From Candidatus Omnitrophota bacterium (GTDB lineage: Bacteria; Omnitrophota; Gorgyraeia; Gygaellales; Profunditerraquicolaceae), in assembly GCA_026387455.1 (NCBI GenBank), contig JAPLLR010000047.1, forward strand, positions 1,828 to 65,827: a stretch of 64,000 nucleotides of DNA. The letters run 5' to 3'. A program made the position numbers. This document shows positions 9,001-24,000 of this stretch, one piece after another. Numbering within the stretch: the first letter of the stretch is position 1; every line of letters begins with the position of its first letter.

Positions 9001-12000
9001 AAGCCTCCCCTTTTTATTAGCCTCTAGAGCATGCAATATGAAAGCCGAAGAAAATCCATTGGCAACACCTGTCTCTACAACGTGTTCCGGTTTTAATATC
9101 CGTGTAATCACGTATAAAGTTGGGGCGCGAAAAGGAGCAAGCATTGTCAGGTTTGAGAAACCAACCGGGCTATCAGATCTTTCAGCGATATCTTTTATGA
9201 AGTCTGATTCAAAGATCTCGCAATAAAGTTTCTCCACTTCTTTATTAGACAACCCGGCAAAAGAAGCAACGGCTCTTTTATAGCTCCAGTAAGCCGCTGA
9301 ATACTGTGCCGCCTTGATCGGGCTCTTTAATGCAATAGCGATATTCTTAAATTTGATCATTTTAAAACCCCTATTGATTTAATAAAGGCCCGGATGGCTC
9401 CGCGACAACCTCATATAAATCAATAGCTCCTTTGTTATAAATACACATTATTTTATCATTGGTACATTCCTGGGCCGGAAAACTTTTGACTAACTTCAGC
9501 CCAGAGCTGGAAGGGATCTTCTTTAGCTCATCCGCATCCTCTTTAAGCTCAGTATTTAAATACCCATCAACATGTACCAATACATATTTTACTTTCATTG
9601 ATCTTAATATACCTGCGGTACGCGGATCGGATAACTTAACTAAACCTTGGGCAAACTTATTTGCCCGGGTCTCGGGTAGTGTTCCATTTATCATTTTCTT
9701 CTCATGCTTTACTTGATATAGCTTATACATTTCATTAGGAGAGTAAGCATCCAAAGGATATTCAGCAATGATTATCTCTTTCGGCTGCTCTTTTAGCCAA
9801 GAATAAACAGCGGGACAATCAATGACATTTATAACCTTATAAGGCGGCCAGGTCCAAAATTCAAACAAAACAATAGCGCAAAACAAGACTGTGGCTAATG
9901 TTTTCGCTATTTGAGTCCTTAATCTGCCTATGGCATATTTTAATCCAAATCCCGCCAACACCGCTACCGCAAACATCAATACCACGCCAAACCGGCAATA
10001 CGCCCTGAACATCGGCAGGATCTTATGCATAAAAAATGACGGCATATATAGTTTTACAGGCCCGATCTGCCACCATGGCGGCTGCGAAAAAAGCCAAGCC
10101 CCCACAGCTAACAAGAAGAAAAAATTAAAATAAAAGCGATCACTATCCTCAGTTAGCATTTTTCTCTTTCTAAAAGCTAAAAAAGCTAGGATTAAAGGCA
10201 GGAAGCCTAAATAAAGCGTATGTTCAGTAAAGCTTGCCCCGTAAAGATCTCCCCCAACAAATTGTTCGGTAAATTTGCCGAATATGGGGTGAGCTACCGG
10301 AGGCAAAATATAACTTAAAGGCTTAGCCGATTGCATAAAAATATCATCAAATGGCCGCTTATAAACATTCCAAGCCGAAGAAGCTCTCTGCTGAGGGGCA
10401 AATATATTCTCAAAAACCGACCAAAACTGAGGAAGGAGAAAAATAGCGGCAACAGCTGATAAAAACAAAATATTTGTGATATATTTCTTATTCTGCCTCC
10501 ACTTAAAAACCAAACAAATAAAGAATATAAACAAAATTAAAATACAATAATACATCACTGCGTAATTAATCGCAGCTAAGACCAGACTTAATACATAGAG
10601 AGATTTATTAACCAGCCTTAGGCTTTCTTTTAAGCGCAGCAGACTCCATAACAATAGTGGCATAGGCCAGACATACATCTCTCCCAAATGCTGCCAGGAA
10701 CGCACAAAGATATAGGGACAGAACCCAAAAATAATACCTGAAAATATGGCAATACGATAATTTTTCGTCAAACGATAGACTAAAAGGTAAGTAAAAAAAG
10801 CACTCAAAAAAATGCAGAGAATGACCTGCAGATTATAAGTCATAACCGGAGTTGTCAACAATGCCAACGCGTGATTAATAAAGAACCAAACGTAACTCAC
10901 AAGATGATTTGAATAAATAGCGATCCCGAAAGGATAAGCTATATAATCGGTATTAACCATAGAAAGATGGTTAAGAAACGCGAATTTTATCCTCCAGGCA
11001 TTCCAGACGATTATGAAAGACTCATCAGTAGAAAAGAACCCGGGCATGCAGGTCTTGATCTTTAAGACCAAAGGATAAGTCGTGATCAATATTAACCCAA
11101 AAAAAATAACCGTCGGCCTGACTATATGAATAAGAAATTTATTTTTCGTATCTTTTTGCATGTTCCAATCCTTTATATTTTAAAGAAATAAAACAATCGG
11201 CTATCCCGGGAACAAAATAAGTAAAAGCGGTGAAAAGCTGAGAAGCTAGAGAAAAACCCGGACGAAAGATTATCGGGATCTTGCCTTCTTTATAGATACG
11301 ATTACAGATAAAACGCGCTCCAAATCCATAAACCGAATAGCCCAAATCTTTGAAATCTTTGACCTCGTAACCGCTTTTATGTCTCTGGTAGACATTCTCC
11401 TCCTCTTCTTCATGAGGAGAGAACTTTGTAACCCCTCTTGGAACTCCGACAATCAAAAGCGACTTGCAAACCCTTTCCAGCTGACTCAAAATATCATCCT
11501 CTTTTTCTATATGCTCTACTACATGAGAAGCAATCGCTACATCAAAAGCTCCGTCTTTTAACGGTAGATTACGCAGATCCGCGCAGACTACCCAACGATA
11601 AATATTCCTATTCTTTAGCTCTCTAAGAGTCGGAAAGTGAATATCGATACCCAGACTTGATTCCATGCCCATATTAAATTTCTTAAGCCTGGACATCATC
11701 GCCCCGTCTCCGCACCCCAGATCACAACAAGTCTTAGTCCCTCTGATTTTCCTTATTTTTCTAGAGATTATCGCTTCTTGGCTAAAAAGGTAATACCTGG
11801 ACACGCAATTCTCTATATCTTTTATTATCTTAAACATTTACGGTTACTTTTCTGCTTTGATAACTAAAAACTGGCCCAGCCTGTTCATTAAAAACTTGTT
11901 TCCCAGAAGCCTGTGCAACCACTTAAGCTTGCTATTCACATCCACCCCTCCGTAAGCAAAGGTGGTCACCTCAAAATCTATCTTCTTAAACTTTTTGAAT

Positions 12001-21000: not shown

Positions 21001-24000
21001 AAATCTTCATAATTCGAATTCTTTATTTTATATAGATTATCAGGCCGAACGTAACCACCCAGAAGATAATGTTAAGTACCGTGGGAAAATCGCGGAACAA
21101 AACCTGAGTAGGGTCAGCGCCTTTATCTTTTTCATAAGCAATATAAACATAACGCATGAGCCCGTAAATGACAAAGGGTGTTGTATAAATAAGATTCTTA
21201 GTGCCGAACCTTGCGACCGTCTCCTGCGATACCGTATAAAGCATGTAGCAAAGCAGCGTAGCTGATAAAAGCGTATACGGGATAAGCTTGAGAAACTCCC
21301 GGTCATATTCCTTTAACACTCTGCGATGATAAACAGATTCGCCCTCTAGAGAAGTTAACTCCTCCTGACGTTTTCCAAATCCCAATAATAATGATAAAAG
21401 CAATGTGCACATAACCACCCATTCTGACAACACTACATCTATCAGCACCGCTCCTGAAGCAACCCGCAATACAAAGCCTGCGGCAATACACATCACATCC
21501 AGAAGAAACACGTGTTTTAAATACAACGAGTAAAACAGGTTGATAATAAAATACGCTATTATAACAATCGCGAAAACCGGGCTTAGCCTGATCGAGAAAA
21601 TAATCGAGACAAACGACAGCACGATGAAAAGCGCGTATGCCTCCCAAAGCTTAAGTCTGCCGCTGGCAATCGGCCTTTTCTGCTTGTGCGGGTGATAGAT
21701 ATCGTGTTTTCTGTCTACGATATCGTTAAATAAATAATGCGCGCTGGCAACCCCGCACCAACACAGAAACCCTGCTATGGTTTTAAGAAGGGCATCTGCA
21801 TTAAATAAATTCAATGAGAAAAACGGAGCGACAAATATAAATAAATTTTTTACCCAGTGCTTAGGTCTTAGGCTTAAGAACAAAAACTTAATCTTTTGCA
21901 TTTTTCTCCACCTGCTCCTTAATCCAGCTATAGGTCTTCTCTATCCCCACCCTCAACGACTGGCTTGGCTTCCACCCTAATTTCTGCCCTATAAGCTTAT
22001 TATCAGAATTTCTTCCCCTTACGCCCTGCGGTCCGGATATATTTTTTATGCTCAACTTTTTCCCGGAGATCTCGATCACTAATTTCGCAAGACTGTTAAT
22101 AGCAATCATCTCGTCAGAGCCGATATTTACCGGACCCTTGAAATCAGAGCGGGTAAGGCGAAGCGTGCCCTCCAAACATTCTTCTATATATAGAAATGAC
22201 CTGGTCTGCAAACCATCCCCCCAGATCTCGATTTCTCCGCCGTCTTTTGCCTCCGCGACTTTCCTACAGACCGCCGCAGGCGCCTTTTCCCTGCCTCCAC
22301 ACCATGTGCCTTCGGGGCCGAAAACGTTGTGGTAACGGGCAATCCTGGCTTCAATGCCATAATTACGGTTGAACGCCAAGTAAAGGCGTTCGCTGAATAA
22401 CTTCTCCCATCCATATTCGCTATCCGGATTAGCCGGGTAAGCGCTATCCTCGGAGCAATTGGGATTATCCGGATCCATCTGGTTATGCTCCGGGTACATG
22501 CAGGCAGAGCTGGAATAAAAGATTCTTTTCACTTTATTCTTGACGCAAACTTCAAGCATGTTTAAGTTGATCAACGCAGAATTATGCATAATATCAGCAT
22601 CATTTTCTCCGGTAAATACAAAACCGGCCCCTCCCATATCCGCAGCTAGTTGAAACACCTCGTCAAACGGCTGGTCAACGACTTTCTTGCACAGCTGTGG
22701 GTCTCTCAGATCTCCGATAATAAAATCATCAGCCGCTGGCTTGGAAAACAGCGGACTTTTCAAATCTACCCCCCTTACCCAGCAGCCCTCCTGCTTAAGC
22801 TTTTTCACCAAATGACTACCAATAAATCCACCTGCTCCGGTTACTAAGACACTTTTTTTCATCGATTATCCTTTTCCTAAAGATTTTAAGCTTATCCCGT
22901 CTTTATCCGAAAAAAACTGCCAGCAATCAAGGATAATCATATCCTTGCCTGCTTTCTTAAAGTTTATTTTCTTAAATTCCTGCCATGGAACAGCTAAAAC
23001 CGTAAGGTCAGCTCCGGAAACACATTCCTGCGCGTTCTTGGCATAACCGACAGCATCTCCCAATACCCCGCGGGCGTTTTCCATGGCCTGCGGATCATAA
23101 ACCGACACAATATATCCTTCATTTACCAGCATATGGGCAATGTTAAGCGCCTGAGAATCTTCGATAATCGGCGTATTGGGCTTATACGATAATCCTAAAA
23201 CGGCAATACGCTTTTTTGATTTCTTGCTTTTTGAGTTGGCCAGCGAATCATTGATCCTATCCAAAACTCTCGTGACCTGGTCTCGATTGACTTCGTCAAC
23301 TTTTTCAGCCAGCTTTGCCTGTGTCTCCATTAACCTGGCAAAACAGGCGAATGCCTGATTATCCCGCGGAAAACACGGTCCGCCATAACCTAAACCAGGC
23401 CTGATATATTTTGAGCCAATGCGGCTGTCCATACCTAAGGCTGTACTTATTACATACGCATCAGCGCCCTTTACTTTCTCGCAAACCTGAGATAAAGAAT
23501 TAGCGAAAGTAATCTTTGTAGTAATATAGCAATTCAAAGAGATCTTTGTGATTTCCGCATTTACCGGACTCATCCTGGCAAAATAAGGATTATTATCGCA
23601 GGTCTTTTTGTAAATATATTCAAGGATGTCCCCATCAACCTTGTTTGCCTCTCCGATCAAGAGCATATCCGGATTAAGAAAATCATGGATCACGCTTCCC
23701 AGAGCAATAAACTCAGGGTTATAAGCAAGGCCGAAATCCTTACCGCACTTTTTTCCGGAGACCTTCTCAAGTACATACTTAACTACCGTCTCGGTAGTCT
23801 GAGGCATGACCGTAGAAGTGACCACTACCACATGGTAACCCTTCTTTTTCTTCAGGGATTCCGCGATTTTATGCACTGCCTTTTCCAGATATTCATTTGA
23901 GAAACTACCATCAGCAAGGCTGGGAGTGGCTACGACAATAAAAGTGACATCGCTATTTAGAATTGCCTCATCGTAATCCGAGGTAGCCTTCAGGTTCTTA

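Follow-up and report, generated by a model that had tools for sequence, protein, structure and literature searches.

The window analysed here, i.e., the whole stretch of 64,000 nucleotides (nt) at positions 1,828 to 65,827 of contig JAPLLR010000047.1 (assembly GCA_026387455.1, Candidatus Omnitrophota bacterium), contains a large glycan-biosynthesis cluster, and two adjacent genes of this cluster are the subject of this work. One encodes a membrane protein of 292 amino acids (aa) from the UbiA superfamily, and the other a 624-aa glycosyltransferase (GT) with the GT-C fold. Does the first enzyme prepare the lipid-linked sugar that the second one uses outside the cytoplasm? Omnitrophota form an uncultivated phylum whose members are very small and perhaps host-associated, and to our knowledge their surface chemistry is not known; a literature search on glycan biosynthesis in Omnitrophota found nothing specific.

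The genes of the window form a single long run on the minus strand, from position 1 to ∼52 kb, with a G+C content of ∼0.42-0.47. Pfam and NCBIfam scans of every open reading frame (ORF) of at least 100 aa, plus two small intergenic ORFs, assign positions 1-38211 to the cluster; its size exceeds 38 kb, and the window holds most of it. The UbiA-type gene is followed, after a gap of 12 nt, by the co-directional GT-C gene (Table 1). These two genes, and those for two further large polytopic proteins of 596 and 683 aa, had been named in an original prediction made from the sequence, and all four are present on the minus strand where it had placed them. The motifs that it quoted are real as well: RPKHWVKNLFIF and NDIVDRKHD occur in the UbiA-family protein, and HPDEAR in the 624-aa protein.

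Table 1. Features of the window, the two genes of the proposed module first (TM, transmembrane segment; SDR, short-chain dehydrogenase/reductase; SAM, S-adenosylmethionine; NDP, nucleoside diphosphate)
Feature	Position	Strand	Basis or remark
Predicted polyprenyl-phosphate 5-phosphoribosyltransferase (PPPRS/DPPR-synthase branch, UbiA superfamily), 292 aa	21023-21901	-	NF008977, 283.5 bits
GT-C-fold glycosyltransferase, 624 aa	19136-21010	-	PMT_2-type membrane core; AglB/STT3-like C-terminal globular domain
Second GT-C-fold protein, 596 aa (DUF6311/YfhO-like)	9371-11161	-	Invariant D46-E47 in first loop
Third GT-C-like protein, 683 aa, ∼11 TM	711-2762	-	hhalign to 624-aa family
DPM1-like soluble GT2, 232 aa	3-701	-	Best PDB match Dol-P-Man synthase 5mlz (E 1.2e-27), then GtrB 5ekp, ArnC
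Second DPM1/ArnC/PpgS-like GT2, 264 aa	36182-36976	-	Weak NCBIfam matches
GT2, 351 aa	18133-19188	-	Pfam Glycos_transf_2; not DPM1-like; one crudely predicted TM, residues 253-271
GT2, not DPM1-like	24201-25211		
GT2, not DPM1-like	35278-36246		
GDP-mannose-3,5-epimerase-like SDR	21888-22862	-	2c59, E 1.7e-107; 14-nt overlap with start of UbiA-type gene
NDP-sugar 6-dehydrogenase	22866-24188	-	TIGR03026, 378 bits
FabG-like SDR, 243 aa	25214-25945		
Block with ATP-grasp protein and FabG-like SDR	25214-27895	-	
Five further extended-SDR genes	27738-32912		No assigned substrate
PQ-loop/SemiSWEET-like protein, 82 aa, three TM	30884-31132	-	PF04193, E 6.4e-11; PF03083, E 1.5e-10
Wzx-type (Polysacc_synt) flippase, ∼12 TM	36973-38211	-	PF01943, E 4.2e-12; upstream end of cluster
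Three B12-binding radical-SAM paralogues in tandem (476, 468, 464 aa)	13826-18099	-	
Fourth B12-binding radical-SAM paralogue, 494 aa	33782-35266	-	
Carbamoyltransferase unit (605-aa carbamoyltransferase, SxtJ-like protein, 52-aa DUF5989 protein)	5024-7446	-	
SxtJ-like membrane protein, 133 aa	5182-5583	-	

As for the 292-aa protein, its Pfam UbiA match (E 2.5e-25) defines the superfamily, and the NCBIfam model NF008977, "decaprenyl-phosphate phosphoribosyltransferase", is exceeded well enough (cut-off 234 bits) to define the branch. The models for heme o synthase, UbiA (4-hydroxybenzoate prenyltransferase), the chlorophyll synthases ChlG/BchG, MqnP, and EboC reach at most 30 bits, with cut-offs of 180-375, so that a grouping with the quinone or chlorophyll prenyltransferases is not seen. 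A phmmer search of the solved structures returned one strong relative, Rv3806c of Mycobacterium tuberculosis (8j8j, E 1.4e-34); the second-best structure, at E 0.006, is an archaeal 4-hydroxybenzoate octaprenyltransferase. Residues 9-288 are collinear in this search with residues 19-298 of the nine-TM Rv3806c fold, with small gaps only, and the protein carries no fused phosphatase or other extra domain.

The match extends to the residues of the active site, whose roles in Rv3806c come from cryo-electron microscopy and mutagenesis (PMC10994848). The first cytoplasmic loop of Rv3806c holds the motif NDxxDxxxD, namely, N73, D74, D77, and D81 (PMC10994848), and the corresponding residues of ORF15 from Citrobacter youngae (N247, D248, D251, and D255) are essential (PMC11127046). 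In the window protein this loop reads N59, D60, D63, and D67, and it is kept in all 12 relatives that were aligned. The ligands of Mg and pyrophosphate (N73 and D77 in Rv3806c) correspond to N59 and D63, and the Lys/Arg cluster that holds the pyrophosphate (R22, K87, R90, K143, and K208) to R12, K73, R76, K129, and R194. The ribose contact Q135 is replaced by N121; the 5'-phosphate contacts K28, Y70, and Y157 are found as K18, Y56, and F143; and K28 and K191, which bind the lipid phosphate, as K18 and K177. The conserved Tyr138, a pyrophosphate contact near the reaction center, is Y124. All of these functional residues are therefore either conserved or conservatively replaced, with a like pattern in the 12 relatives, and the Y-to-F change at the position of Y157 is also found in some mycobacteria (PMC10994848). 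The Lys/Arg cluster occupies the place of the second Asp-rich motif of true prenyltransferases, which indicates a phosphoribosyltransferase. On these sequence grounds, the protein is assigned with high confidence to the branch of the DPPR synthases, or polyprenyl-phosphate phosphoribose synthases (PPPRS), as the original prediction had it, and it is expected to convert phosphoribosyl pyrophosphate (PRPP) and polyprenyl phosphate into polyprenyl-phosphate-ribose-5-phosphate.

The 624-aa protein, which is 100% identical to a protein on a 100-kb contig from a metagenome-assembled genome of Candidatus Omnitrophica, needs a different approach. Its Pfam match to PMT_2 is marginal (26.7, with a cut-off of 26.1, over residues 112-246 only), although PF02366 and/or PF13231 are present in most of its homologues. 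A profile of its family found zero chains in the PDB at E values up to 10, so that its placement is by fold comparison only. The AlphaFold2 model, built with 30 homologues, has a pLDDT of 91.3 and a pTM of 0.90, and when it is compared with the PDB by Foldseek, the first 45 places are all taken by GT-C enzymes. Most of these structural neighbors use polyprenyl-phosphate monosaccharides, while STT3, AglB, and PglB use lipid-diphospho-oligosaccharides. HPDEAR spans residues 39-44, in the loop after TM1, and R26, P40, D41, E42, R44, and D48 are invariant across the 30 homologues; thus, this loop is conserved and acidic, as is expected at the active site of a GT-C, and the protein fits the class GT-C(A).

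To which GT-C family does it belong? Its identity to the Pmt and ArnT structures is 11-14%, and Pfam detects no MIR domain; it is a distant relative, and membership in GT39 (PMT) or GT83 (ArnT) is not demonstrable. It probably lies outside GT136 too, considering the PMT_2-only match and the alpha/beta AglB-like C-terminal domain, and it does not fall among the Emb/Aft-type arabinofuranosyltransferases. When 1.84 billion representatives were searched exhaustively with the family profile, 1,606 proteins were returned at E ≤1e-30 and 22,659 at E ≤1e-3. About a dozen clusters at 50% identity give full-length matches above 500 bits, and the next scores are below 355 bits; this drop delimits a small, mainly Omnitrophota subfamily within a very large PMT_2-like superfamily. 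One of the more distant relatives from this search, P0299, sits on a contig of 3.6 kb and is uninformative. The name "glycosyltransferase family 39 protein", given to the GT-C protein by NCBI, and the name of the curated model matched by its neighbor are both misleading as to lipid, sugar, and role.

The evidence that joins the two proteins comes from 40 further loci encoding relatives of the 624-aa protein, for which all ORFs were compared with the proteins of the window. These loci are mostly from metagenome-assembled genomes of Omnitrophota, with a few bins labeled Deltaproteobacteria, Thermodesulfobacteriota, Acidobacteria, or Planctomycetales. Once duplicates and short contigs are dropped, 18 non-redundant loci remain, and they divide equally into two clades. 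In clade A, whose GT-C proteins are 39-70% identical to that of the window, every locus has a UbiA orthologue 0.9-4.4 kb upstream on the same strand; in clade B, with 32-38% identity, none has. What clade B has instead, in all nine loci (L004, L005, L009, L012-L014, L016, L030, and L034), is a set of donor genes 1.8-6 kb downstream, comprising a 243-aa DPM1/ArnC-like GT2, a nucleotidyltransferase, and an epimerase. The GT2 is missing from all clade-A loci, and the nucleotidyltransferase occurs in one of them.

In a neighbor-joining tree of the GT-C proteins, the two donor modules fall in two separate clades. The UbiA-type enzyme and the GT2 split along the clades of the GT-C; on the most economical reading, both modules would make the lipid-linked donor of this GT-C, and one was exchanged for the other a single time in the history of the family. 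This split is the best available evidence from the sequences, and it supports the idea that the UbiA-type enzyme of the window feeds the 624-aa GT-C. Orthologues of the 351-aa GT2, whose gene shares 53 nt with the GT-C gene in the window, are found downstream of the GT-C in six of the nine clade-A loci and in seven of the nine clade-B loci; their distance from the GT-C start is 1.8-1.9 kb in most of the former and 3.3-10 kb in the latter.

Are there precedents for this arrangement? The nearest one is the three-component pentofuranose system of C. youngae O1 and O2, in which side chains of alpha-ribofuranose or alpha-xylofuranose are added in the periplasm, as shown by genetics, in vitro assays, and nuclear magnetic resonance (Kelly et al. 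2024, PNAS, PMC11127046). Here, ORF15 is a polyprenyl-phosphate phosphoribose synthase made of a UbiA-type domain (31% identity to Rv3806c) fused to a HAD phosphatase; ORF14 is a small transporter with four TM; and ORF12 is a GT-C, the founder of the CAZy family GT136, which is EpsG-like according to CDD and has a beta-rich carbohydrate-binding module (PMC11127046). The cytoplasmic SDR ORF13 alone decides the sugar, as O1, without ORF13, has ribofuranose, and O2, with ORF13, has xylofuranose; DprE1/E2 homologues accompany the use of arabinofuranose (PMC11127046). According to Kelly et al., such systems are widespread and vary in their transporters and GT-Cs (PMC11127046).

The window shares with C. 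youngae a PPPRS with the NDxxDxxxD loop that is genetically linked to a GT-C inside a surface-polysaccharide cluster, the character of an accessory to a backbone pathway, and a dedicated cytoplasmic SDR that is present or absent between otherwise similar loci and is the likely pentose switch. The differences are also clear. The window and the relatives examined have neither a fused or neighboring HAD phosphatase nor a small four-TM flippase; the GT-C has a PMT_2-type core and an AglB-like C-terminal domain, in contrast to the EpsG-like ORF12 and its beta-rich module; the backbone is served by a Wzx-type flippase and a Wzy_C gene rather than by an ABC transporter; and the host is an uncultivated Omnitrophota bacterium.

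The original prediction had instead drawn the analogy with actinobacterial arabinan synthesis. The logic of the pairing holds, in that the mycobacterial decaprenyl-phospho-arabinose pathway (Rv3806c, Rv3807c, DprE1/DprE2, Rv3789, and Emb/Aft) starts with an enzyme of the same family, with its PRPP and lipid-phosphate residues kept, and ends with a GT-C acting outside the cytoplasm, as proposed here. The sugar does not carry over: no DprE1/DprE2 or Rv3807c-type gene is found in the 64-kb window and none is conserved in the related loci, so that arabinose is not indicated. The C. youngae system is the better fit because the module is an add-on in a polysaccharide cluster and because DprE1/DprE2, PAP2, and GtrA-like genes are missing from the 64 kb and from the conserved genes of the related loci.

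A third comparison is offered by the GtrA/GtrB/GtrC and ArnC/ArnT systems, where again the cytoplasm supplies a lipid-monophosphate sugar to a GT-C that acts outside it; the Pfam family PMT_2, matched by the core of the 624-aa protein, also covers ArnT-like proteins. A donor synthase of the GtrB/ArnC type is apparently what the sister clade B uses, with its DPM1/ArnC-like GT2, nucleotidyltransferase, and epimerase. In the clade of the window, by contrast, a PRPP-dependent UbiA-type enzyme replaces the GT2 synthase, and from this it follows that PRPP, rather than a nucleotide sugar, would be the source of the sugar.

A last system to consider is carried by MT837543.1 (L042), an unverified "Bacteriophage sp." scaffold from human faeces, on which a UbiA/PPPRS, a HAD phosphatase, a 118-aa SMR/EamA-like protein, an SDR epimerase, and a 565-aa DUF6044 protein are encoded in a row. 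Its UbiA-type protein is 38% identical to that of the window and has the same active-site residues, and unlike the window module the scaffold carries the full canonical row. DUF6044 may be another GT-C-type family that uses a lipid-phospho-pentofuranose.

Another intriguing question concerns the identity of the pentose. Between the UbiA and GT-C genes of eight of the nine non-redundant clade-A loci lies an extended SDR of 338-343 aa (L002 8997-10028 and L003 7566-8582, with orthologues in L007, L008, L020, L021, L024, and L040), 62-100% identical to the L002 protein. No close homologue of it has a solved structure, and its closest families, i.e., 3-beta-HSD, HpnA, and OleD, all act on lipid-type substrates. 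It is a candidate for an epimerase that would convert the lipid-linked pentose without a partner protein. The window lacks an orthologue, its closest protein being 22% identical, and in L025, a close and short relative, the UbiA gene abuts the GT-C gene directly and the SDR is missing as well. By analogy with C. youngae O1 and O2, the window module probably delivers unmodified ribofuranose, and most of its relatives an epimer.

Other enzymes of the window that might modify the pentose were considered and set aside. The GDP-mannose-3,5-epimerase-like SDR overlaps the UbiA gene, but it still accompanies the sugar dehydrogenase where UbiA is lacking; as the two occur together in clade B too, they belong to a nucleotide-sugar branch outside the UbiA pathway. 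The 243-aa FabG-like SDR was a possible analogue of DprE2, but it is found in UbiA-less loci with a thiamine-diphosphate enzyme and the ATP-grasp protein. A DprE1-type FAD oxidase (FAD_binding_4/ALO-type) is found neither in the scans of the 64-kb window nor in the Pfam tables inspected for the genes called in five related loci, and none is conserved across clade A.

The original prediction placed two more large membrane proteins and two DPM1-like GT2s in the same cluster. They are there, but they are not tied to the UbiA-type enzyme, as their families also occur in loci without UbiA. The 596-aa protein has zero Pfam matches of its own, while DUF6311 (PF19830) is found in its homologues, one of which bears the name YfhO. 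It is assigned to the GT-C fold by a search with its AlphaFold2 model (pLDDT 76.9), for which the top 16 Foldseek matches are STT3, DPY19, AglB, PglB, and AftA. An hhalign comparison with the 624-aa family is not significant (probability 2.6%), and the DE loops are aligned nonetheless. Its family is widespread, with at least 476 hits, including loci that have neither UbiA nor a 624-type GT-C.

The 683-aa protein is GT-C-like on the evidence of its profile, and this is the weakest of the three GT-C assignments: hhalign aligns it with the 624-aa family over 91 columns of the PMT_2 core (90% probability, E 1.6e-6), PF02366 or PF13231 is found in a few of its homologues, and its family profile returns only noise from the PDB. 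Neither of the two proteins shows a Wzy or WaaL signature, and the fold of one and the profile of the other speak against the polymerase or ligase role that had been considered for them. The 683-aa protein is 42% identical to a 718-aa protein of locus L043, where the gene order is identical; the trio that it forms with two downstream DPM1-like GT2s is kept in that locus, in which a Wzy_C gene follows and UbiA is absent.

Of the DPM1-like GT2s, the one at the left end of the window is 62% identical to the GT2 at the corresponding position of L043, and its top NCBIfam matches, all weak, are PgfS, dolichyl-phosphate hexose transferase, and ArnC. It is a candidate synthase of a polyprenyl-phosphate hexose, with the 683-aa protein as its partner. 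The other one, next to the flippase gene, has its best NCBIfam match with glucosyl-3-phosphoglycerate synthase (67.8 bits), followed by ArnC (63.5 bits), AglJ, and PpgS. In terms of sequence and gene order, the 596-aa and 683-aa proteins and the DPM1-like GT2s are a conserved backbone of the cluster, and UbiA is tied to the 624-aa GT-C only. Given that the 596-aa and 683-aa families occur in UbiA-less loci, the UbiA/GT-C pair appears to be an accessory module that was placed into a backbone shared among Omnitrophota.

Collectively, these data lead to the following proposal, which we regard as fairly probable: the UbiA-type enzyme and the 624-aa GT-C are an accessory module for the addition of a PRPP-derived pentofuranose, likeliest ribofuranose, outside the cytoplasm. 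At the cytoplasmic face, the UbiA-type enzyme would transfer 5-phosphoribose from PRPP to polyprenyl phosphate, probably undecaprenyl phosphate. The 5-phosphate would then be removed by an unlinked or housekeeping phosphatase, or perhaps it is retained, and the lipid-phospho-ribofuranose would be flipped to the periplasmic face. There, the 624-aa GT-C would pass the pentofuranose to an acceptor by means of the D41/E42 loop after TM1. The most likely acceptor is the glycan of the cluster itself, given that GT2 and GT4 genes are kept downstream of the GT-C; the 351-aa GT2 probably helps to build this glycan. The core of the original prediction, namely, that the UbiA-type enzyme makes a lipid-linked donor for extracytoplasmic glycosylation by the adjacent GT-C, is thus supported by the model score, the active-site residues, the GT-C fold, and the co-occurrence of the two genes.

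Several points weigh against this proposal. In the scans of the 64-kb window, neither a phosphoribose phosphatase (HAD/PRP or PAP2) nor a small flippase of the SMR, EamA, or GtrA type is found; likewise, no phosphatase family is conserved in the clade-A loci, and no small multi-TM ORF is present in their fetched flanks (up to 10 kb). In the lack of a linked phosphatase and flippase, two steps of the pathway are left without an assigned gene. In addition, the 624-aa protein is PMT_2-type and probably not a member of the GT-C family characterized with this donor (GT136, EpsG-like), and the DUF6044 protein of MT837543.1 has no profile similarity to its family. The sister clade evidently relies on a different donor, so that the sequence of the GT-C cannot tell its donor specificity, and the DPM1-like GT2s of the window could in principle feed it. 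Finally, the module is known from sequence and computed models alone, and the organism is uncultivated.

Which small membrane proteins might move the donor? The cluster has only two, the SxtJ-like protein and the 82-aa PQ-loop protein, the latter ∼10 kb upstream. The SxtJ-like protein was discarded as a flippase, for it travels with the carbamoyltransferase and the DUF5989 protein. The PQ-loop ORF lies between an rmlB-like dehydratase and an SDR, and its product could be a transporter of sugars or lipid-phospho-sugars; a eukaryotic PQ-loop protein, MPDU1, is needed for the use of both dolichyl-phosphate mannose (Dol-P-Man) and dolichyl-phosphate glucose. As a flippase of lipid-phospho-sugars it is a weak candidate, and its orthologue occurs only in L009/L027 (59% identity, 6.9 kb upstream of the GT-C), with no link to UbiA.

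Could the same two genes serve a different purpose? The sugar might be another pentose, if unlinked DprE1/DprE2-like enzymes produced arabinofuranose, as happens in mycobacteria and for the pilin of Pseudomonas aeruginosa PA7, or if some other SDR produced xylofuranose. The window is only 64 kb of a genome and it has five extended-SDR genes still to be matched with a substrate, while the SDR of eight clade-A loci implies that epimerized donors are normal in this family. However, a DprE1-type oxidase is lacking from the window, from the related loci inspected, and from the conserved genes of clade A; the window has no counterpart of the 343-aa SDR; and of its own SDRs, the one that overlaps UbiA resembles GDP-mannose-3,5-epimerase and the FabG-like one is found without UbiA. 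Another sugar is therefore considered unlikely. A more radical view is that the adjacency has no functional meaning, so that the 624-aa GT-C would use a polyprenyl-phosphate hexose made by a DPM1-like GT2, and the product of UbiA would serve the 596-aa or 683-aa GT-C or some other purpose. The example of the clade-B proteins, which adjoin a DPM1/ArnC-like GT2 with no UbiA, gives this view some substance, as do the two DPM1-like GT2s in the window and the 596-aa family, which within 10 kb downstream is found in four clade-A loci and in no clade-B locus. Yet the presence of UbiA follows the GT-C phylogeny exactly, nine of nine versus zero of nine, and always within 4.4 kb; the 243-aa GT2 of clade B has no close orthologue in the window (best identity 29%); the GT2 at 3-701 is part of the trio of the 683-aa protein, which occurs without UbiA or the 624-aa GT-C; and the 596-aa family, widespread as it is, also occurs in loci devoid of UbiA. 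A meaningless adjacency is, in our judgment, very unlikely.

The acceptor deserves a similar discussion. The pentose might be destined for a protein, as with the PMT or TfpW O-glycosyltransferases, or for lipid A, as with ArnT, instead of a polysaccharide. The 624-aa protein, however, has no WWD motif and, by Pfam, none of the MIR domains; its gene is embedded in, and co-transcribed with, genes of polysaccharide assembly, including the conserved GT2 and GT4 downstream; and no pilin or S-layer gene is nearby. Only a slim chance is given to a protein or lipid A acceptor, and the pentofuranose module acting on the glycan of the cluster is retained as the preferred reading.

Going one step further, one GT-C lineage may have been switched, as a cassette, between two donor supplies: a PRPP-dependent UbiA-type module, with or without the SDR of the lipid-substrate type, which would provide a lipid-phospho-pentofuranose, and a DPM1-like GT2 with nucleotidyltransferase and epimerase, which would provide a lipid-phospho-hexose. 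The UbiA version would then be a minimal two-gene system with no dedicated phosphatase or flippase. Is the 5-phosphate kept, and ribose-5-phosphate transferred? Or, is the donor trimmed by a housekeeping enzyme? Perhaps the PQ-loop/SemiSWEET-like protein or the Wzx-type protein moves it across the membrane. This broader scheme is possible but doubtful, and it is put forward tentatively.

With regard to its meaning, a pathway of this kind had been reported by 2024, and the window offers a new and phylogenetically remote example of it, not a new principle. The peculiarities of this example are the different GT-C family, the lack of a linked phosphatase and flippase, and the swap of the donor module in the sister clade. 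So far, the route from PRPP to a lipid-linked pentofuranose is known for mycobacterial arabinan, Pseudomonas pilin, and enterobacterial O antigens; if the proposal is true, it extends to Omnitrophota and is paired there with a GT-C family other than those characterized. The alternation of UbiA-type and DPM1-type modules in sister clades is a natural experiment on how a GT-C changes its donor specificity, and the presence or absence of the 343-aa SDR provides a testable prediction, ribofuranose versus its epimer. The finding neither opens nor closes a long-standing question.

The rest of the cluster gives an idea of the glycan to which the pentose would be added. It includes rmlA/B/D-like genes, the nucleotide-sugar dehydrogenase, the FabG-like classical SDR, and six further extended-SDR sugar epimerase/dehydratase genes. 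Seven GTs (six GT2 and one GT4) are present besides the three large polytopic GT-C-type proteins, and further members are eight SAM methyltransferases, the four B12-binding radical-SAM genes, a GDSL esterase, and an ATP-grasp protein, together with the carbamoyltransferase and its SxtJ and DUF5989 companions. Upstream of the Wzx-type flippase the genes (tyrS, rpsA, and others) are housekeeping, as is the window beyond the cluster in general: tyrS, rpsA, phosphoglucomutase, rpe, obg, rplU, the rib operon, nusB, pgsA/pgpA, ftsK, and pnp. Past the left edge, on contig L001, which overlaps the left end of the window and extends beyond it, a 225-aa DPM1-like GT2 is followed by a Wzy_C-family gene. 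In L043, the equivalent block continues with a family-9 heptosyltransferase and ManC (L043 14944-20626), and this context of Wzy_C, heptosyltransferase, and ManC suggests that the whole cluster makes a glycan of the lipopolysaccharide/O-antigen type.

Some of its decorations can be guessed at. The four B12-radical-SAM and eight methyltransferase genes, sets of which are also found in relatives, suggest extensive C- and O-methylation of the glycan. The carbamoyltransferase/SxtJ/DUF5989 unit suggests a carbamoylated sugar; in L043, the carbamoyltransferase and SxtJ genes come directly after the GT-C of the 596-aa family. The sugar dehydrogenase is followed by a close homologue of the plant GDP-mannose 3',5'-epimerase (362 bits to 2c59), and the pair, present in both clades, hints at a precursor of an L-configured hexuronic acid.

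Two further traits vary among the loci. The ATP-grasp protein and the FabG-like SDR recur upstream of a 336-aa GT2 gene, both in the window and in relatives (L002 1292-4799 and L004 5494-9014); beside them, the relatives have the thiamine-diphosphate enzyme and the window a methyltransferase instead. This block appears to be a branch devoted to an uncommon substituent, either an acyl group or an amino acid. An asparagine-synthase-type amidotransferase, absent from the window, is encoded in seven of the nine clade-A loci (e.g., L002 15069-16967 and L003 15733-17646) and in no clade-B locus, and it may amidate a uronic acid.

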